A DNA stretch of 64,000 bases from an uncultured Actinomycetes bacterium (GCA_963755635.1 CAVWKS010000026.1:46786-110785); one strand, 5' to 3'. Shown: positions 21,884 through 38,101, counted from the first letter of the stretch. Translations and numbers: made by a program. The notes: generated by a model from the sequence alone, not told the origin.

Positions 21884-22405
21884 ATGAGCACAACCACGAT
21901 CGAGGACCAGCTTGCCGCGATCCGCCGCCGGATCGACCGGCTTCAGGCGGGTGCGCAGGCCGGCCCTCGGCGGAACGGCCGTCACATCGACGCCCTGAAC
22001 CAGGAGGAGGCAGCCGTCCGCGCAGCTGTCCGCGAGGCTCCCGACGAGGTCGAGGAGAAGCTCGGGCGGCTGGAGACGCGGCTCGACGTCGCCGAGCATT
22101 CGCTGGAGGCAGATGCCTCCGGCGACTGGGCGACCTTCGCCACGGCGGTGGAGGCGGAGCTCGCGAGTTGGGACACGTACCTCGAGCGGCTCCAGACAAG
22201 TGTCGCGGCGAAGGCGTGGAAGGCACGCGAGCAGGCCGAGGCGGCGATCGGCGACGTTCGTAGCCGCCGGATCGAGGTCGACGAGCGCCTGGCACAGGGG
22301 CGCGACACCGCCGGCGATGCCTCGGAGGACGCGCGCAAGCGGGTCACCGCGGCTCGCGACCGGCTCGAGCAGAAGGCCGACGAGCTGTCGGCGGAGATCA
22401 AGTGA
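21884..22405 (+). CDS. hypothetical coiled-coil protein
   Basis: ORF 21884..22405 is preceded by AAAGGAGG. It is helical and rich in charged residues. No family recognised. Confidence 0.6.
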   Translation: MSTTTIEDQLAAIRRRIDRLQAGAQAGPRRNGRHIDALNQEEAAVRAAVREAPDEVEEKLGRLETRLDVAEHSLEADASGDWATFATAVEAELASWDTYLERLQTSVAAKAWKAREQAEAAIGDVRSRRIEVDERLAQGRDTAGDASEDARKRVTAARDRLEQKADELSAEIK

Positions 22406-22407
22406 AA

Positions 22408-22472
22408 CGGCAGCAGGACGCGCGACCGTGGCAGCGGTTTGGCATCGACGCCCCGCAAGCTCCGTCGCGTAA
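22408..22472 (+). promoter_or_regulatory. TGGCA direct-repeat promoter architecture, copy 2
   Basis: CGGCA at 22408 and TGGCA at 22429 and 22440 have the same 21/11 spacing. This is followed by TGGCATCG-N17-TCGCGTAA (22465-22472), 28 nt before ATG 22501. Confidence 0.45.
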
Positions 22473-22500
22473 TCGAAAACCCCGGAATGGAGGTAGGGAG

Positions 22501-23130
22501 ATGGAAACCATGATTGACAGCGCCGCGAAGCTCTCGCGGACAGAGGTGAAGAAGACGCGGTGGATGCTCGGCCTGCACGGCCTGGCTTCCCTCGTCTTCG
22601 GCGTGATGATTCTCGCCTGGCCCGGCATCAGCGTCTACGCGCTCACGATCGTCTTCGGTGCCTACACGCTCGCGACGGGCGTCGTCGAGCTCGGCACCTC
22701 GTTCACCGCGCAGGGGAAGGAAGAGCGTGGCTGGCTGATCCTGAGGGGCCTCCTCGGGATCACCGTCGGCGTGCTCGTCTTCGCCTGGCCGGGGATCTCG
22801 GCGCTCGCACTCCTGTACGTCATCGGCGTGTACGCCGTCCTGCTCGGGATTCTGTTCGTCGGCGCGTCGTTCGAGCTGCCGCTGGACGGCCGCGACTCGG
22901 CAATGGTGGGCCTCACGGGCCTGGTCGCGATCGTCTTCGGGACCGTGATCTTCGCCAAGCCGGGCGCAGGCGCGCTCGAAGTGCTCGCACTGATCGCGGC
23001 GTTCGGGCTCGTCACCGGGATCAGCGAGCTCGTCGTCGCGATCGGCGGCGAGAAGCTGCTCGAGCGGAAGGCGAAGAGATTCGCCCCGGCTCGCCGGTCG
23101 CCGAAGACGACTCCCCAGCCGTCGCATTGA
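22501..23130 (+). CDS. HdeD-family (DUF308 repeat) membrane protein
   Basis: This is the in-frame ATG of ORF 22402..23130, after GGAGG. It has repeated GxxxLxxGxxxIxxP-type helices (ILAWPGIS, VFAWPGIS, IFAKPGAG). Confidence 0.8.
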   Translation: METMIDSAAKLSRTEVKKTRWMLGLHGLASLVFGVMILAWPGISVYALTIVFGAYTLATGVVELGTSFTAQGKEERGWLILRGLLGITVGVLVFAWPGISALALLYVIGVYAVLLGILFVGASFELPLDGRDSAMVGLTGLVAIVFGTVIFAKPGAGALEVLALIAAFGLVTGISELVVAIGGEKLLERKAKRFAPARRSPKTTPQPSH

Positions 23131-28308: not shown

Positions 28309-28854
28309 CTACGAGGCAGCGGTGACGGGCTCCGCCTCGGCCACCGGCCGCTCCATCTCCTTCTCCTCCACCTCTTGCTTGGCTGCGCGGAGCACGGCGG
28401 CCGATCCGGCGGCCCCTGCGGCGAGCGCCGCGAGGGCCCAACGCGTGCCCCAGCGGCTCCTCCCCAGCGCGCCGTCGATCGACCACTGACCCGGACCGTT
28501 CTCGGTCAGGCCGAAGACCGCGGCGAGCAGAACGAGGTTGTACTCGTAGCCACCGGCGCTCACCCAGACGCCCTTCTCCCAGTGGACGGTCTTGATCGCC
28601 GTGATCATCGCGCCCGAGACCGCCGCCGCGCCGAGCGGCGTGGCGGCGCCGAGGGCGAAGAGAAGTCCACCACCGGCTTCGGCGGTACCGGCGGCCAGGG
28701 CGTAGCGGCGCCCCGGTCGAAGGCCCAGCTGCTCGAAGAACCCGCCGGTCTCGTCGAGCCCACCGCCGCGGAACCACCCGAAGAGCTTCTGCGTGCCGTG
28801 GCCGACGAAAAGCAGTCCGATCGTCGTTCGTGCCAGAAGGCGAAACAGTCCCAT
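28309..28854 (-). CDS. DoxX-family membrane protein
   Basis: ORF 28309..28854. LLARTTIGLLFVGHGTQKLFG is the DoxX signature. Confidence 0.85.
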   Translation of the reverse strand: MGLFRLLARTTIGLLFVGHGTQKLFGWFRGGGLDETGGFFEQLGLRPGRRYALAAGTAEAGGGLLFALGAATPLGAAAVSGAMITAIKTVHWEKGVWVSAGGYEYNLVLLAAVFGLTENGPGQWSIDGALGRSRWGTRWALAALAAGAAGSAAVLRAAKQEVEEKEMERPVAEAEPVTAAS

Positions 28855-29919
28855 TACGACTCCTTTCTCTCGTCACTGTCGGTGGAGGACGCGTAGGCGG
28901 CCTCGCGCACCGCATCGTCCGACTCGAGCCCCGCGCCGAGCGCCCCACCCACGGTTGCAAGCGAGGCGGTGAACCAGGCGAGCGTGGCGTAGTCGCCTGT
29001 CCCGACGGCATGGCCCAGCCCTGAGCCAAGGGCTTGAGCGCTGAGGAGCAGCTCGGCCGCGGCGAAGATCATGAGGAAGAGGGCGGCGTACAGCGTGGCG
29101 ATCCCGATCAGGATCGTTGCTGCTGTCGCGAAGTTGAACAGGATGACCTGGTCGCGGAGGTGGCGGTCGGGCGCTCGCTCCCAAAGGCCGTGCGCCACGA
29201 TCACTGCTCCGCTCGTGAGCGAGATCGAGGCGATGGACGCGAGCGCGAGTCGCGTCGACCCCGCCGTCGCCGAGATCCGCCAGATATCGGAGGTGACGAG
29301 GCCGTAGGCGCCGGCGACGACCGCCGCGAGCAGGGCGCGGTAGAGCCGAGCCGCCAGGCGCCAGGGGCGATTTGCCCGCACCATTCCGAGCAGGAGGCGA
29401 AGGTGGCTCGCGAGAACCTCCGGGACAAAGAGGAATCGCAGCGCCCCGGGCCGATCTGCGGTGTCGGTGGCGAGCTCCTGGAGCACGCCGCGTCCCCAGC
29501 GGCGTCGCAGGTGCGCGAGCGCACCATCGCCGCTCCACCGGTCGCCGCCCTCGCCGACCAGCTCGCCGACGAGCTCGAGGAGCGTCCGCCGCAATCGCGG
29601 CGCGAGGTGCAGCGCGCCGAGGGCGGGAAGCGAGACGACGGCGATCCCGTGCGTCGGGCTGACCTGCCGCGAGACGGGGCGGCGGCCGACCCGCAGCGGG
29701 AGGTCGGTGACGACGACGCCGAGATCCCAGTCTCGCATCCAGCAGCTTGCGCCGCGCCGCATCGATGATCTCGGTCGTCTGAGCCGGAGGAGCGACGAGG
29801 CGGTCCACCGTCAGCTCGGTCCGCCACTCGACACCCAGGTCCAGCGCCTCGAGGTCGTGCGCGAGCTCGCTGGCGATCTTGGCGGTGACGTCGCGTGCGA
29901 GACCCGGCGCAACGATCAT
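28854..29919 (-). pseudogene. conserved hypothetical membrane protein split by a frameshift near 29733-29741
   Basis: From ATG 29919 the sequence MIVAPGLARDVTAKIASELAHDLEALDLGVEWRTELTVDRLVAPPAQTTEIIDAARRKLLDA reads in one frame. It then continues as RDWDLGVVVTDLPLRVGRRPV... to the stop at 28854 in the frame of ORF 28854..29762. Confidence 0.6.
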
Positions 29920-32681
29920 GCCGAGGGCAATGTCCGGTTGCTGCTCCGCGCGGTGTTGGTCCGCGGAAGCGGCTCCGTGGCTTGTCGACGCCGCCTCCAC
30001 GATCGGAGCCTCGTCAGCGCGGGACAGGCTCCGCGCTGACCTCCCGCTCGTCGGCCCTCCTCCGCCTCCCGGGCTGCACCCGTATCGACGTCGAAGCGCA
30101 GCTCGCCCTCGAGGGCGTCGACCGTGACGCGGTCGCCGGGCCCGATCGCGTCGCGCGAGCACCATCCGCGAGAGCTCGTTCTCGATCATGCGCTGGATCG
30201 TCCGCCGTAGCGGGCGCGCGCCGAACTCCGGATCGAACCCTTCGTGGGCAACGAGCTCGATCGCCTCGTCGGTGAAGACGACCTCGATCCCCTGGGCGTG
30301 CAGCCGCCGGACCAGCCGGTCGAGCAGCAGCTTCGTGATCTCGGCGAGCTGCTCGTCCGTCAGCGCCCGGAAGACGATGATCTCGTCGATCCGGTTGATG
30401 AACTCCGGGCGGAAGCTGCCGCGCAGAACCTCCATCAGCTCCGCTTTCAGCTCCTCGAACGATTCGCCGCGACGGGCATAGTCCTGGATTCGGGCTGCGC
30501 CGAGGTTCGAGGTCATGATCACGACCGTGTGCTTGAAGTCGACCGTTCGCCCCTGGGCGTCCGTCAGGCGGCCGTCGTCGAGGATCTGGAGCAGGATGTT
30601 GAAGACGTCTGCGTGGGCCTTCTCGATCTCGTCGAAGAGCAGCACCGAGTACGGCCGCCGCCGCACCTGCTCGGTGAGCTGCCCTGCCTCCTCGTAGCCG
30701 ACGTAGCCGGGCGGCGCCCCGACCAGGCGAGAGACCGTGTGCCGTTCCTGGAACTCGCTCATGTCGAAGCGGACCATCAGGTTCTCGTCGCCGAACAAAG
30801 CCTCGGCGAGCGCGCGGGCGAGCTCTGTCTTCCCGACGCCGGTCGGGCCGAGGAAGAGGAAGCTGCCGACGGGTCGCTGCGGATCGCCGAGACCCGCGCG
30901 CGAGCGCCGGACCGCCTCTGCGACCGCGGAGACGGCCTCCTCCTGTCCCACGATGCGGGCATGCAGCTCCTCTTCGAGTTTGATCAGCCGCTCGCGTTCC
31001 TCGGCCGTCAGCTGCGAGACGGGGATGCCGGTCGCCCGTGACACCACCTCGGCGATGTCCTCGGGCGTGACCTCCGCGGCCCGCTGGCGGCCAGTTCGCC
31101 GCTCATCGAGCTCCTGGCGGCGCGACTCGGCTTGCTCTCTGATTTGGCTGGCCCGCTCGTAGTCCTCGGCCGCGGTCGCCTGGTCGCGCTCGCGCGCGAG
31201 CCGCCGTAAGTCCTCTTCCAGCGACCGCGTGTCGTCGTCCTTGGTCTTCGTCCGCAACCGCACGCGTGCGCTGGCCTGATCGATCAGATCGATCGCCTTG
31301 TCCGGCAGGAAGCGGTCGCGGATGTAGCGGTCGGAGAGCTCGGCGGCGGCGACGATCGCCTCGTCGGAGATCCGACGCGGTGGAAGGCCTCGTAGCGGTC
31401 CTTGAGGCCGTGGAGGATGTCGATCGTCTCCTCGACCGTCGGCTCGCGGACGAGCACCGGCTGGAAGCGGCGCTCGAGCGCCGGGTCCTTCTCGATGTTC
31501 TTGCGGTACTCGTCGAGCGTCGTCGCGCCGATCACGTGCAGCTCGCCGCGAGCGAGTGCGGGCTTGAGCATGTTCGAGGCGTCCATCGCCCCCTCGGCGG
31601 CTCCCGCGCCCACCACGGTGTGCAGCTCGTCGATGAACACGATCAGCCCCTCCGAAGCGCCCCGGATCTCGTCGATCACGGTCTTGAGCCGCTCCTCGAA
31701 CTCGCCGCGGTATTTCGTCCCGGCGATCATCCCAGCCAGGTCGAGTCCGATGATCCGCCGGTCGGCAAGCGTCTCGGGAACCTCGTCGTTGATGATGCGC
31801 TGCGCGATACCTTCGACGATCGCGGTCTTGCCCACGCCTGGCTCGCCGAGCAAGGCCGGGTTGTTCTTCGTCCGGCGCGAGAGGATCTCGATCGCCTGGT
31901 CGATCTCGTCCGCGCGGCCGATGACGGGGTCGAGCTTGCCCTCGCGTGCCTCCTGTGTCAGATCGCGGCCGTACTCGTCGAGTCTCGGAGTGCGGCTCAT
32001 CTCCCGGGCACCTCCGGTCGGCTCGACGCCGCGGATCACGCCGCCGCGGAGCTTCGTGTGCGAGGCGCCGAAGCGCTCGAGCAGCCGTCCAGCCTCACTG
32101 TCGTTATCACGCGCGAGCGCAAGCAGCACGTGCTCGGGCCCGACGTACGAGGCCCCGAGCTCGCGCGACTCGTCGTAGGCAGCGAGCAGCGCCGCCTTCG
32201 CGTCAGGGGAGAGCGAGGGCGCGACGTCCGTCCGCTGCGCCTTGTCGGCCTCTTCCTCGACCTGGGCCGCGATCGCTTCCGGGTCGGCGTCGATCTCGCG
32301 CAGCACGTGGCGGACGACGTCGTCGCGAAGGGCCGCGTGCAAGAGATGGTCGGTGTCGAGGTCGAGGCTTCCCCACTCGAGTGCCGTCTGCGCCGCGCGT
32401 TGCAGCAACTCGCGGGTGGCGTCGCTGAAGAACTGGGTGACGTCGACCCGTTCGACCTGTCGGGCGGGCGCCGCCACCCGCCCCGTCGATGGCGTTTGGC
32501 CGAAGAAGTCGGAGAAGAACTCGTCGAACAGGCTGCTGCCGCCGAGGCGGCTCGACATCCGTTCTTCGGCGAGATCGAGCTCGCAGAGATACTCGGTTTC
32601 CTGCGTCCCGTCCGGACGAAGCCGAACCCGGGACGCGACTGCCGGTCGCCCGTGACGTTGGCAAAGGTGCTCGACGGCCAT
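29916..32681 (-). pseudogene. Clp/Hsp100 AAA+ chaperone with ClpG/ClpK-like architecture, interrupted by two frameshifts
   Basis: There are three consecutive frame segments: 32681-31374, 31373-30153 and 30152-29916. It has an 83-aa N-terminal extension, two Clp_N repeats, Walker A motifs GEPGVGKT and GPTGVGKT, and a short ClpC-type linker. No (I/L/V)GF ClpP loop lies between TSNLG and FRPEFINRIDE. Confidence 0.85.
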
Positions 32682-32752
32682 CTCAACCCCCTGTCGCTAG
32701 GTCAGTGATTTGGGTTGCACACGAGGCGACCGGCAGTGACAGCGCCGTCGCC

Positions 32753-33232
32753 TCACTTCGACTTGATCTCGATCTTCTGGCGCTGCGCGCGCTCGGACTT
32801 CGGAACGCGGACGGTCAGGACGCCCTGATCGAGGCTCGCCTCGATCTTCGAGGCGTCGACCTGCTCCGGGAGTCTGACGCGGTACTCGAAGCGCCCGATG
32901 CGGCGTGTCCGCCGCCGGAGGGCGCCCTTGCGCTCCTTCTCTTTGATCTCGCCCGTGATCGAGAGCTCGTTGCCCGCGACCTCGATATTCACGTCCTCGC
33001 GCTTGACCCCCGGAAGCTCGGCCTCGAGGACGTAGGCACCGTCCTGCTCCTCGATGTCCACCGGCGGCGCCCAGCCGGCTCCCTCGGTGATCAGCGGCGA
33101 CTGCAAGCCGAACCCGCCAAACGTCTGGTCGAGCATCCGGCGCATCCGCTGGGTCATCTGCTCGAGCTCGCTCAGCGGCTCCCACCGCTGCGGCTCGGTT
33201 GTGGAACGACGCTCAGGAAGAGTCTGCGACAT
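32753..33232 (-). CDS. Hsp20/alpha-crystallin small heat-shock protein
   Basis: ORF 32753..33232. The alpha-crystallin core is PPVDIEEQDGAYVLEAELPGVKREDVNIEV...GVLTVRVPK, and AAGGAGG precedes the ATG. Confidence 0.9.
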   Translation of the reverse strand: MSQTLPERRSTTEPQRWEPLSELEQMTQRMRRMLDQTFGGFGLQSPLITEGAGWAPPVDIEEQDGAYVLEAELPGVKREDVNIEVAGNELSITGEIKEKERKGALRRRTRRIGRFEYRVRLPEQVDASKIEASLDQGVLTVRVPKSERAQRQKIEIKSK

Positions 33233-33319
33233 CAGCTGCCTCCTTGGTACTTGCTGGTTCCGGTCCGTGCCACACCTGGCGGCACGAATCCGCTATCTGA
33301 TGTCTAGCCGGAGCTTCTG

Positions 33320-33345
33320 CCGACAAACTGTCGGATCTGCGACAG
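33320..33345. promoter_or_regulatory. three-arm inverted repeat with a CRP/FNR-like 5-6-5 palindrome
   Basis: CCGACA-aac-TGTCGG (33320-33334) overlaps CTGTCG-gatctg-CGACAG (33328-33345), i.e. TGTCG-N6-CGACA. It lies midway between the divergent hsp20 (ATG 33232) and crp/fnr-family (ATG 33431) genes. Confidence 0.4.
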
Positions 33346-33430
33346 TGCCGGAATCGCGCGCCCGGTTTCCCTCGCCCAACGGAAGCCGCGGGCCGACAGC
33401 CCGCGTTTCGCTCCCTGGCTGCGCGCGACG

Positions 33431-34069
33431 ATGACACAGGGGGACTTCGAAGGGTTGCCCGGGGACGACGTCGAGGCGCTTCGTCGCTTTGCCACTCGCA
33501 GCAACTATCCACGGGGAACGACGATCTTCCGCCAGGGCGAGCGGCCGCAGGAGCTCTTGATCATCGAAGAGGGGGAGCTCGAGCTCATCTACCAGACGCG
33601 CTCCGAGCGGCTCGTCGTGCAGATCCTGTACGCCGGCTCGAGCGTCGATCACCTTGCGATCCTTCTCGACATCCCCTATCCCTACTCGGCCGTCACGTTG
33701 AGCGAGGCTACGCTCCTCCGCCTCCGTCTCGACACGATCCGCGCGCTCGAGGAGCTCTTTCCTGAAATCGCTTTCCGCTGGCTCGGCCTGCTGGCCCACG
33801 CGCTTGACCGTGCCCACCAGCGGCTTCTGGAACTGGCCGGCAGGTCAGCCGTTGAGCAAGTCAGTCATCTCCTCTTGCACGAGTCGGCCGAGCGCGACGA
33901 GCCGACGCTCGAAATAACACAGGAAGAGCTCGCGGCCACACTGGCACTGAGCCGACAGACGGTCTCGCGCGCCTTTCACGACCTGGCGAGCGAGGGCGCG
34001 ATCAAGCCGGAACGCCGCCGCGTCCGCCTGCTCGATCTCGAGAAGCTGCGCGAACATCTTCCGCGCTGA
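33431..34069 (+). CDS. Crp/Fnr-family transcriptional regulator
   Basis: ORF 33431..34069. It has a cNMP-binding beta-roll (RGTTIFRQGERPQELLIIEEGELEL) and a C-terminal HTH (TQEELAATLALSRQTVSRAFHDL). Confidence 0.85.
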   Translation: MTQGDFEGLPGDDVEALRRFATRSNYPRGTTIFRQGERPQELLIIEEGELELIYQTRSERLVVQILYAGSSVDHLAILLDIPYPYSAVTLSEATLLRLRLDTIRALEELFPEIAFRWLGLLAHALDRAHQRLLELAGRSAVEQVSHLLLHESAERDEPTLEITQEELAATLALSRQTVSRAFHDLASEGAIKPERRRVRLLDLEKLREHLPR

Positions 34070-36066: not shown

Positions 36067-36181
36067 CTAACCCCCTCGAACCGCGCGTGGGCGCCGCCTA
36101 CGCCGCGGACGCGGGGATGCGATCGCGCTCAGGGCCGCCAAACAGCGAACGAGCGCTCCAAAACGCCTAGCGTACTTGGCC

Positions 36182-38101
36182 ATGCCGAGAAGCTCGAGCG
36201 GCCCCGGTCCCCGCAGCCCCGAGCCCTCGCCGGGCTCGCGGTTTTCCGGACGAACCGCATGGGCGCGGAACCTGCAGACGCCGCTCCGAGAGTTCCTTCG
36301 GACCGAGACCGGCGGCGCGGTGGCGTTGCTCGCTGCGGCAACTGCCGCCCTGGTCTGGGTGAACGTCGACGCGTCGTCCTATGACTCGCTCTGGCACACG
36401 CAGCTCTCGATCCGGATCGGCGGCGCCGGCGTGACGCTCGACCTCCGCGACTGGGTGAACAAGGGCCTGATGACCTTCTTCTTCCTGGTGTTCGGCCTCG
36501 AGGCCCGACGGGAGTTCGATCTCGGCGAGCTGCGGGACCGACGGCGGTCCGCACTGCCGCTCGTGGCCGGGCTCGTCGGGATGGCTGTGGCGGTGTCCAT
36601 CTATCTCGCCTTCAACGCGGGCCGCTCGTCCGCCCACGCCTGGGGCATCGCGATGTCGACCGATACGGCCTTCGCCCTCGGCCTCCTCGCGCTCGTGGGC
36701 CCGCGCTTTCCCGACCGGCTGCGCGCGTACATGCTCACCGTCCTCGTTGTAGATGACGTCGCCTCACTCGCCGTGATCGTGGCTGTGTACACGGAGACGT
36801 TGAGGGTCGCGCCACTCCTCGCGGCTGCCGGCTTCTACCTGGTCGTCCTCGTCCTGAGGAGCATTCCCGTACGCGCCGGCATCCTCTACTTCCTTCTCGG
36901 AGTCGGCGCCTGGGTGGGCCTGCTCAAGTCCGGGGTGGACCCGGTCGTGATCGGCTTGGCGATGGGCATTCTGGCGTACGCGTATCCCGCGGAGCGGCCG
37001 AGCCTCGAACGCGCGACGGAACGATTCCGCGAGTTCCGTGAGCAACCCTCGGCGGAGCTCGCCCGCTCGGTCGGCGTGCAGCTGAGGTCGGCTACGTCGG
37101 TCAACGAGCGGCTGCAGCAGCTCTATCACCCCTGGACGAGCTACGCGATCGTGCCCGTGTTCGCCCTTGCGAACGCAGGTATAGCGCTGAACGGCGCTCT
37201 CCTGGCGCGAGCGTTCACCTCGCCGATCACGCTCGGGATCTTGCTCGGCTACGTCGTCGGCAAGCCGGTCGGCATCCTGGGCGGCTCTGCCCTCGTCACG
37301 CGGCTGAGCCGGGGGCGCCTGCGGCCACCGGTGGGCTGGGCCGCCGTCGGCGGCGCAGGCACGATCGCCGGCGCCGGATTCACAATCGCCTTGCTGATCG
37401 CCGCCCTCGCATTGGACGGGCCGCGGCTGGAGGAGGCAAAGGTAGGCATTCTGAGCGCCGTTCTCGTCGCTGCGATCGCGACCTGGCTGCTGTTCCGCGC
37501 GACCGCGCTTCTGCCTAGGCCGTTGAGGATCCGCGCCCTGCTCGGAACGGCGGAGCCGCTTGTCGATCTCGACAGAGACGTCGACCCTGACCGCGACCAC
37601 GTTCGCGGCCCGCGCGATGCGCCGGTGACCTTGGTCGAATACGGCGACTTCGAGTGCCCGTATTGCGGCAGAGCCGAGCCGGTCGTTCGGGAGCTCCTGG
37701 GCGACTTCGGCGACGTCCGCTATGTCTGGCGCCACCTGCCGCTGAGCGACGTCCACCCGAACGCCCAGCTCGCCGCGGAGGCATCCGAGGCCGCGGCCAA
37801 CCAGGGCGCCTTTTGGGAGATGCACAACGTGCTGTTCGAGCATCAGGATGCACTCGGCCCTGACGACCTGGTCGCGTACGCCGGGCAGCTCGGCCTCGAC
37901 GTCGAACGGTTCTCGGATGACCTTCGCCGGCATGCGGGCTCGGCCCACATTGCCGAAGACGTCGACAGCGCGGACCTCAGCGGCGTCTCGGGCACACCGA
38001 CCTTCTTCATCAACGGACAACGCCACTTTGGCGCCTACGACATCGACACTCTCTCCAAGGCGGTGCACACCGCCGGCGCTCGCGCGACGATCAGGAAGTG
38101 A
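36182..38101 (+). CDS. nhaA: Na+/H+ antiporter NhaA fused to a C-terminal DsbA-like thioredoxin-fold domain
   Basis: ATG 36182 lies in ORF 36176..38101. NhaA motifs are WVNKGLMTFFFLVFGLEARRE and STDTAFALGLLALVG. The C-terminal domain has VTLVEYGDFECPYCGRAEP. Confidence 0.9.
   Translation: MPRSSSGPGPRSPEPSPGSRFSGRTAWARNLQTPLREFLRTETGGAVALLAAATAALVWVNVDASSYDSLWHTQLSIRIGGAGVTLDLRDWVNKGLMTFFFLVFGLEARREFDLGELRDRRRSALPLVAGLVGMAVAVSIYLAFNAGRSSAHAWGIAMSTDTAFALGLLALVGPRFPDRLRAYMLTVLVVDDVASLAVIVAVYTETLRVAPLLAAAGFYLVVLVLRSIPVRAGILYFLLGVGAWVGLLKSGVDPVVIGLAMGILAYAYPAERPSLERATERFREFREQPSAELARSVGVQLRSATSVNERLQQLYHPWTSYAIVPVFALANAGIALNGALLARAFTSPITLGILLGYVVGKPVGILGGSALVTRLSRGRLRPPVGWAAVGGAGTIAGAGFTIALLIAALALDGPRLEEAKVGILSAVLVAAIATWLLFRATALLPRPLRIRALLGTAEPLVDLDRDVDPDRDHVRGPRDAPVTLVEYGDFECPYCGRAEPVVRELLGDFGDVRYVWRHLPLSDVHPNAQLAAEASEAAANQGAFWEMHNVLFEHQDALGPDDLVAYAGQLGLDVERFSDDLRRHAGSAHIAEDVDSADLSGVSGTPTFFINGQRHFGAYDIDTLSKAVHTAGARATIRK

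Follow-up and report, generated by a model that had tools for sequence, protein, structure and literature searches.

A small heat-shock protein (sHsp) gene and an Hsp100 gene lie side by side on the minus strand of a 64,000-nucleotide stretch of DNA from an uncultured Actinomycetes bacterium (GCA_963755635.1, CAVWKS010000026.1:46786-110785), the whole of which we call the window. The sHsp gene, hsp20 (32753..33232, minus strand), has an intact reading frame of 159 amino acids (aa). An earlier reading, made from the sequence alone, had proposed that hsp20 is followed by an Hsp100 gene of the ClpG/ClpK type, and the pairing itself is sound. The hsp20 product matches Pfam HSP20 (PF00011, E 9.8e-24), with its alpha-crystallin domain at residues 59-156 and an I-E-I motif at the C-terminus, and the Hsp100 gene starts at ATG 32681 on the same strand, 71 nt downstream, with no minus-strand terminator-like site in the gap. 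Identity of hsp20 across the orthologous loci L008-L011 is 96-97%, and hsp20 and the Hsp100 gene are presumably co-transcribed. Our analysis indicates that the Hsp100 is a sister-lineage relative of ClpG and ClpK, the disaggregases of 'extreme heat resistance' hitherto described only in Gram-negative bacteria. For the locus as a whole we favor, with moderate confidence, a model in which a soil actinobacterium of Gaiellales type has here a stress operon, hsp20-Hsp100(-doxX), encoding a ClpG-like Hsp100 whose frame breaks are likely errors.

As assembled, the Hsp100 gene is split into four segments. Our reference was an intact metagenome orthologue (L008/P0003, 888 aa; 94% nucleotide and 98% amino acid identity to the window gene), against which codons 1-436 fall in a first frame, codons 438-843 in a second, the next 33 back in the first and the last 13 in a third. 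All parts lie on the minus strand. Segment 1 (31374..32681, codons 1-436; 98.4% identical to P0003 residues 1-436 by tblastn) encodes an N-terminal extension (N1), the N2 (Clp_N) domain and AAA1, with Pfam matches to Clp_N, AAA and AAA_lid_9, the Walker A motif GEPGVGKT, the pore loop KYRGEFE and the Walker B motif VFIDELH. The first frameshift (31372..31376, between …HRV and RISDEA…) reflects one base missing at 31375 relative to intact orthologues. Segment 2 (30155..31371, codons ~438-843; 98.0% identical to P0003 residues 437-843) carries the end of AAA1, a short M domain (~31042-31254) containing EDYERASQIRE, AAA2 (motifs GPTGVGKT, GYVGY and LLFDEIEKA) and the D2-small domain, and matches Pfam AAA_2 and ClpB_D2-small. 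At the second frameshift, 30154, the window has one G more than L008 and L009. This shift is followed by segment 3 (…DAIGPGDRVTVDALEGELRFDVDTGAAREAEEG; 30058..30152), located by tblastn of P0003 residues 844-876, and by the third frameshift (30055..30057), where the window has GGG and intact L008 has GG, the extra G being at 30057. Segment 4 (ADEREVSAEPVPR; 30014..30054) includes the true stop, TGA at 30016-30014.

The sequence-only reading had counted two frame breaks and carried the gene on to 29916. Compared with L008/P0003 there are three 1-bp indels (31375, 30154 and 30057), the last of which had been missed, and it was this oversight that gave rise to a 56-residue C-terminal tail and to an ATGA overlap with the next gene. 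Both are frame artefacts: 29916..30013 (minus strand) is an out-of-frame read-through outside the Hsp100 gene, made up of a 13-nt spacer plus the first part of the gene that follows, which begins at GTG 30000, 13 nt past the stop. The tail is therefore only ~24 residues long (DTGAAREAEEG..ADEREVSAEPVPR) and acidic. A conserved C-terminus, …EREVSAEPxxR in P0003, P0008 and P0059, is recovered in the window only after the third shift.

We consider it quite probable that the three indels are assembly or sequencing errors, and the organism probably makes a full Hsp100 of ~888 aa. This judgment rests on the abundance of intact orthologues, on the pattern of substitutions and on a similar defect elsewhere in the same assembly. 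Orthologues of 884-899 aa without breaks are common. Three genomes of the window's genus (G003, G006 and G013) have single stop-free frames of 899-1059 codons that span nearly the whole query, and intact copies are also found on dozens of metagenome contigs. When changes are polarized with L009, 30 synonymous and 4 non-synonymous substitutions fall on the window lineage, compared with 31 and 8 on the intact L008 lineage, which indicates that selection on the window gene has not been relaxed. In the genome assembly to which the window belongs (G000), the canonical clpC, recognizable by its LGF loop, has a 1-bp frameshift of its own between the two Clp_N repeats of the N domain (G000:C7:113100-113700; it reads ...LELALREEL* in place of ...REALSLGHNYIG), suggesting that the assembly is prone to indels. 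Genome-wide, a detector based on a hidden Markov model of G+C content at third codon positions counted 380 places (117 per Mb) where the frame changes on one strand with no stop close by; in high-GC loci of isolate genomes, 492 kb in all, the baseline is 37 per Mb. The genome is thus roughly threefold above baseline, an excess of about one switch per 12 kb. We take this as a relative measure only, as the detector is crude and missed the shifts at 30154 and 30057.

The density of breaks at this locus points the other way. There are three frame-breaking indels in the 2.7 kb of the Hsp100 gene and one in the next gene, four in 3.8 kb altogether, which is more than the genome-wide rate predicts and about 10 times the estimated genome-wide excess. 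The Hsp100 gene is also accessory, most genomes in its genus and order being without it. The Hsp100 gene and the adjoining membrane-protein gene might thus be real pseudogenes in an accessory stress operon that is decaying around an intact hsp20. Given a substitution pattern with no more non-synonymous change than in the intact L008 lineage, the same type of 1-bp frameshift in clpC and the threefold elevation of frame switches across the genome, we regard such decay as possible but unlikely. A population assembly also has a poorer consensus and lower coverage in accessory regions, and the local excess of indels could reflect either low coverage of this region or real operon decay. For practical purposes, the assembly is indel-prone and the organism itself probably has an unbroken Hsp100 gene; we describe the repaired protein below.

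In the repaired Hsp100, Pfam domains follow the order Clp_N (twice), AAA, AAA_lid_9, AAA_2 and ClpB_D2-small, with intact Walker A, Walker B and sensor 2 motifs and two intact pore loops. The alignment to the NCBIfam ClpG model begins at residue 2 and forms one continuous stretch. Residues 1-83 precede Clp_N, in agreement with the N-terminal extension of about 83 residues noted earlier. Across 170 Hsp100 sequences, we recorded the spacing between the end of AAA1 (LPDKAIDL) and the start of AAA2 (xVGQ), and the occurrence of a ClpP-docking tripeptide, [LIVM]-G-[FL], within the AAA2 segment TSNxG...FxPEFxNR. Spacing is 110 residues in the window clade, compared with 115 in ClpC and in ClpG/ClpK, 106 in ClpL and ~179 in ClpB, and the earlier assignment of a short, ClpC-type M domain is accordingly upheld. 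The AAA2 segment is 28 residues long and without the tripeptide in the window clade; it likewise lacks the motif in ClpG/ClpK (26-32 residues), in ClpL (23 residues) and in all ClpB sequences (23-29 residues) but one, L170, whereas the longer segment of ClpC (34-37 residues) contains LGF, VGF or IGF. In the corrected window sequence (TSNLG...FRPEFINR, 28 residues, within 30391-30513), as in L107-L109, no [LIVM]-G-[FL] is present, so the claim that the protein has no ClpP-docking tripeptide survives repair of the frame.

The host genome (3.26 Mb, 37 contigs) supplies an internal comparison. It encodes a canonical ClpC with LGF in the corresponding AAA2 segment (contig C7) and a canonical ClpB with a long M domain (contig C36), and the window Hsp100 is thus a third paralogue. 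We also considered a C-terminal extension as a ClpG diagnostic and rejected it, because the genome's ClpC has an acidic tail comparable to that of the window protein.

These features bear directly on whether the Hsp100 might instead serve ClpP as an unfoldase of the ClpC or ClpE type, a component of a protease and not a refolding disaggregase. Orthologues are labelled ClpC by JGI, the M domain is ClpC-like and some orthologues have UVR Pfam matches, and VGF or IGF loops are found in some members of an actinomycete sister family discussed below. The tripeptide is nonetheless missing from the AAA2 segment of the window protein and of L107-L109, the ClpC role in this genome has its own canonical, LGF-bearing candidate, the tree sets the window clade apart from canonical ClpC, and the window protein has Clp_N, a domain that ClpE does not possess (PMC13125188). 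We judge a ClpP-feeding function to be very improbable.

The N1 domain preceding Clp_N has been termed the 'defining feature of ClpG proteins' (PMC8024975). Its core in ClpG (residues 1-46) consists of a beta-hairpin and a helix, binds zinc via C6/C9/C31/H34 and contacts substrate through V17 and L21 (PMC10641755). The core of the window N1 (residues 1-46; 32544..32681, minus strand) is predicted to be a zinc-ribbon-like beta-hairpin plus helix, with C7, H10, C33 and D36 as putative ligands and a hydrophobic strand, VASRVRLRP. The second part of N1 contains what we call the FF motif (residues 50-60; 32502..32534, minus strand). Profile comparison with ClpG N1, which the sequence-only reading had suggested, supports a common origin: when 26 actinobacterial N1 sequences (cut before Clp_N) were compared with the N1 of five ClpG/ClpK proteins, hhalign returned a probability of 96.3% (E 1.6e-9), and a broader 13-sequence N1 profile raised this to 98.2% (E 3.9e-14). 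Searched against all PDB sequences, the broader profile found 8p66_B first (E 0.018) and the McsA zinc finger 8wtb_B second (E 0.073). The former, a nuclear magnetic resonance structure, bears the name 'Clp protease ClpC, heat shock survival AAA family ATPase ClpK' and corresponds to the N1 core of ClpK (residues 1-46). An AlphaFold2 model of the window N1 has strands at 16-21 and 27-32 and a helix at 34-46, with predicted local distance difference test (pLDDT) values of 78-89, a hairpin-plus-helix arrangement that matches the fold described for ClpG N1 (PMC10641755). On these grounds the window N1 is homologous to that of ClpG/ClpK.

Homology extends beyond the zinc-ribbon-like core. ClpK (GLFEDFLGSDFF) has also kept the FF motif, as has every actinobacterial relative, with or without a zinc ribbon, and the alignment pairs SLFDEFFS of the window with the post-helix GLFEDFLG of ClpK. 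Docking of an FF helix on N2 was considered and found no support, as residues 44-79 have pLDDT <50 in an AlphaFold2 model of N1 plus N2.

At the residue level, the alignment to ClpG pairs C7 with C6, H10 with C9, C33 with C31, D36 with H34, V19 with V17 and P23 with L21. Several of these observations weigh against a simple transfer of ClpG function to the window protein. Two of the four ClpG zinc ligands (C9 and H34) are His and Asp here, and L21, one of the two key substrate-binding residues, aligns with an invariant proline, so that metal or aggregate binding by the window N1 may be altered or lost. The structural and single-sequence searches were also less telling than the profile comparison: Foldseek with the N1 model against PDB gave a best E of 0.33 (zinc-ribbon-like ribosomal proteins), with 8P66 absent among the 50 best matches listed, and neither phmmer with the single N1 sequence nor hmmsearch with a Gaiellales-only profile returned anything significant from PDB.

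On the other side, the C/H/C/D ligand pattern is invariant in 85 distinct N-termini of close orthologues, which argues for a maintained site. His and Asp are both able to ligate zinc. The counterpart of V17, V19, is kept, and a hydrophobic face formed by V15, V19 and L21 is present. The replacements are bridged by natural intermediates: the canonical CxxC...CxxH pattern occurs in Rubrobacter (L108) and in several metagenomic fragments, C-H-C-C in one metagenomic fragment, and C-C-C-D, with Asp at the fourth ligand position, in ClpG-like proteins of Klebsiella aerogenes and Paracoccus. A search of residues 1-80 against 1.84 billion representatives gave 67 matches, mostly N-terminal fragments that serve well as bridges and not as a measure of distribution. 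The window site may bind metal.

The same substitutions underlie another interpretation, namely that the protein works only with a partner (the co-encoded sHsp, DnaK or an unknown adaptor), whether as unfoldase or as disaggregase, since its altered N1 would no longer bind aggregates autonomously. The Cys-His-Cys-Asp ligand set and the proline at the L21 position would fit such a protein, as would the tight linkage to hsp20 and the existence of a large actinomycete sister group that has no zinc ribbon and keeps the FF motif. Work on ClpE, moreover, shows that disaggregation can proceed without the homologous zinc subdomain but requires the variable part that follows it (PMC13125188), as would fit a partner-dependent or FF-motif-centred mechanism. 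Against it stand the invariance of the C/H/C/D quartet in the 85 N-termini and the occurrence of Asp at ligand position 4 in proteobacterial ClpG-like proteins. The ClpG-H34A variant stays largely active (PMC10641755), and the short M domain of the window protein has no DnaK-binding wing. Weighing these points, we consider partner dependence unlikely.

Phylogenetic analysis places the window protein next to ClpG/ClpK. Our main tree was inferred by maximum likelihood (LG+C20) from 793 columns and 47 rows, none of them ClpE, with support given as ultrafast bootstrap/SH-aLRT; a quick 63-row tree agrees with it. ClpG and ClpK form an exclusive clade (100/100). All actinobacterial relatives form another (96/99), which also includes ClpL on a very long branch (2.77), and this branch length makes the placement of ClpL unreliable. 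Together, ClpG/ClpK and the actinobacterial family form a group with 100/99 support, from which ClpB (100/100) and canonical ClpC are separate. The window's actinobacterial clade is thus sister to ClpG/ClpK and lies outside canonical ClpB and ClpC; its position outside canonical ClpC bears out what the earlier note had anticipated. Within the actinobacterial clade, the window protein groups with Gaiellales, Solirubrobacterales and Rubrobacter sequences (95/94), and the remainder is a large family from Streptomyces, Micromonospora and Mycobacteriales in which the zinc ribbon has been lost. Members of that family (L110-L155, with Actinomadura, Gordonia, Mycolicibacterium and Nocardia also represented) keep DPFxxxxxRFFG about 15 residues before Clp_N. 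VGF or IGF loops are found in its Micromonospora, Actinomadura and Nocardiopsis members, where they have been either regained or retained, and in none of the Streptomyces or Mycobacteriales members.

The identification as ClpG/ClpK, the stand-alone disaggregases of Pseudomonas aeruginosa, Klebsiella and E. coli LHR/TLPQC islands, therefore stands in part. The features shared with these proteins are the order of N1 (a zinc-ribbon-like core plus an FF-rich segment), N2, AAA1, an M domain with one wing, an AAA2 that has no ClpP loop and a tail that is short and disordered, together with N1 homology, an sHsp gene directly upstream as in the heat-resistance locus (LHR), and the sister-clade position. 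What does not carry over is membership proper. The window protein is outside the ClpG/ClpK clade, with 52-55% identity in the core, and scores 962-974 bits (ClpG) and 923-928 bits (ClpK) against NCBIfam NF033607/NF033606, which are narrow 'exception' models with a cut-off of 1900 bits; Burkholderia and Klebsiella aerogenes ClpG-like proteins likewise reach only 1390-1440 bits. Its ligands are C-H-C-D rather than C-C-C-H, with Pro at the L21 position, its N1 has 83 residues rather than ~106, and its tail of ~24 residues is acidic, whereas the disordered tail of ClpG (20-40 residues) is Pro/Lys-rich. Its gene is chromosomal, accompanied by doxX and a Crp/Fnr-family regulator, and has only the upstream sHsp gene in common with LHR/TLPQC islands (sHsp, FtsH, YfdX, HdeD, Trx, KefB). 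Its host, finally, is an actinobacterium of Gram-positive lineage, whereas ClpG has been described for 'selected Gram-negative bacteria' (PMC8129007). By clade, model cut-off, ligand identities and island context, the window protein does not count as ClpG/ClpK in the strict sense.

Other named Hsp100 systems match less well. ClpE, which partners ClpP in a protease of Bacillota, has an N-terminal zinc subdomain homologous to ClpG N1, followed by a variable part, and a short M domain, yet it is without Clp_N and carries a VGF ClpP-docking motif (PMC13125188), the reverse of the window protein on both counts. ClpL, a stand-alone disaggregase of Lactobacillales and Listeria, resembles it in its short M domain, in the lack of a ClpP loop and in belonging to the same 100/99 super-clade; its N-terminal domain is unrelated. 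ClpC/ClpC1 proteins are of similar length and likewise have Clp_N and a one-wing M domain that includes a UVR-like motif, but they have an LGF/VGF/IGF ClpP loop and no N1, and form a separate clade. ClpB shares the missing ClpP loop, and its NCBIfam model outscores all others in raw bits (1030). This score is nonetheless below the TIGR03346 cut-off of 1232, the match is in two stretches because the window protein has no two-wing M domain (110 versus 179 residues), and ClpB too is a separate clade. The McsA zinc finger, the second-best PDB match of the N1 profile, has the landmarks C-x2-C...RPA...C-x2-C in common with N1, but McsA is a separate adaptor for McsB/ClpC, without fusion to an Hsp100, and its match is weaker than that to ClpG N1. 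Database names of the orthologues are generic ('ClpC', 'AAA family ATPase').

The Hsp100 gene is patchily distributed and accessory. Among 25 relatives examined, three genomes of the same genus have a full-length, N1-bearing orthologue and a fourth (G011) has one cut by a contig end; one genome from another family of the same order has a 71% match that begins at residue 46. Across the phylum, the N1 profile matches 42 of 401 sampled genomes (24 of 249 genera), or about 10%, 13 of them strongly. Immediately upstream there is an sHsp gene in Gaiellales (L008-L011), in Rubrobacter (L108), in one Mycolicibacterium (L135) and in the classical ClpK island (L017); most actinomycete loci have no sHsp gene in this position. 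A different association was seen on plasmids of Burkholderia multivorans, Klebsiella aerogenes and Tsukamurella tyrosinosolvens (L012, L013 and L014), where ClpG-like genes are directly downstream of a pair encoding a Dyp-type peroxidase and an encapsulin. In Armatimonadota (L156-L158), we observed Hsp100 proteins with a short M domain and no ClpP loop that nevertheless fall on the ClpB side of the tree, and that may represent another unnamed class without a ClpP loop; several sHsp genes flank the one in L156.

The mechanism we propose for the window pair is drawn by analogy with ClpG (PMC8024975, PMC10641755, PMC8129007); what our analysis established is the architecture, the N1 homology, the intact catalytic motifs, the sister-clade position, a recurrent sHsp linkage and two further, canonical paralogues, ClpB and ClpC, in the same genome. 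The sHsp would co-aggregate with unfolding proteins and keep the aggregates tractable. The Hsp100 hexamer could then dock directly on aggregates via several N1 domains, making contact through the hydrophobic face of the first beta-strand (V15/V19/L21/P23), perhaps aided by the FF motif. Polypeptides would be threaded through the KYRG and GYVG pore loops with ATP in both rings and, because the protein lacks a ClpP-docking loop, released for refolding with no need of ClpP. The hexamer may act independently of DnaK, as the second M-domain wing, which ClpB uses for DnaK, is missing. Autonomous, DnaK-independent disaggregase activity is what this analogy would predict for the window protein.

We also entertain a broader speculation, to which we give little credence: that Actinomycetota hold an old and widespread sister lineage of ClpG/ClpK in which the FF motif (LFDxFFxxFF/DPFxxxxxRFFG), and not the zinc ribbon, targets aggregates or sHsps, with the Cys-His-Cys-Asp site of Gaiellales acting as a metal or redox switch on the disaggregase. 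The FF motif is present in every member of the lineage, the ribbon-less Streptomyces, Micromonospora and Mycobacteriales branches included.

ClpG and ClpK have been treated in the literature as a speciality of selected Gram-negative bacteria, spread on heat-resistance islands, and our literature search found no description of an actinobacterial ClpG-type protein. The window locus shows that the ClpG design, an Hsp100 with N1 and without a ClpP loop, encoded behind an sHsp gene, is also present as a patchy chromosomal trait in deep-branching Actinomycetota. Natural variants of the N1 metal site (CCCH, CCCD, CHCD and CHCC) and ribbon-less forms with the FF motif only are available, and should be useful for defining what aggregate recognition requires of N1 and for tracing the origin of ClpG.

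Around the gene pair, a conserved block consists of hsp20, the Hsp100 gene and doxX, with a divergent Crp/Fnr-family gene ahead of them. The latter (33431..34069, plus strand), whose product has a Pfam cNMP-binding domain and HTH_Crp_2, keeps its position in L008-L011 and encodes a candidate regulator of the operon. It is separated from hsp20 by a divergent regulatory region of 198 bp (33233..33430), in which we found a ribosome-binding site, AAGGAGG, and two palindromes, CCGACA-N4-TGTCGG and GTGCC-N9-GGCAC. Column identity in this region among the window, L008 and L009 is 97%, compared with ~94% for coding DNA. No sigma-70 consensus promoter was found upstream of hsp20, and inspection by eye revealed neither HAIR nor CIRCE operators there.

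Downstream of the Hsp100 gene is a gene for a membrane protein of ~380 aa (28854..30000, minus strand; called as 380 aa in L008). Its start at GTG 30000, as called in L008, is preceded by GAGG, and it has a frameshift of its own at about 29732-29737 (an indel relative to L008). The protein has no Pfam match, and we rejected a relationship to the LHR 381-aa orf/orf11-like protein or to a Roseomonas 371-aa protein, there being no similarity. This gene is present in the window and in L008 and missing in L009-L011, where doxX comes straight after the Hsp100 gene; it is a variable insert, and for this reason we do not count it in the conserved block. The last gene of the block, doxX (28309..28854, minus strand), which encodes a DoxX-family membrane protein (Pfam DoxX, E 2.4e-18), shares base 28854 with the membrane-protein stop, and the TAATG overlap noted in the sequence-only reading is thus real. 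Farther away and not contiguous with the operon, the window contains a DUF308/HdeD-family gene (22402-23130, about 10 kb away) and a gene that joins an NhaA antiporter and a DsbA-like thioredoxin domain in one protein (36176-38101, about 3-4 kb away). Together they may be a loose echo of the HdeD-GI, KefB-GI and Trx-GI genes of LHR, or a coincidence.

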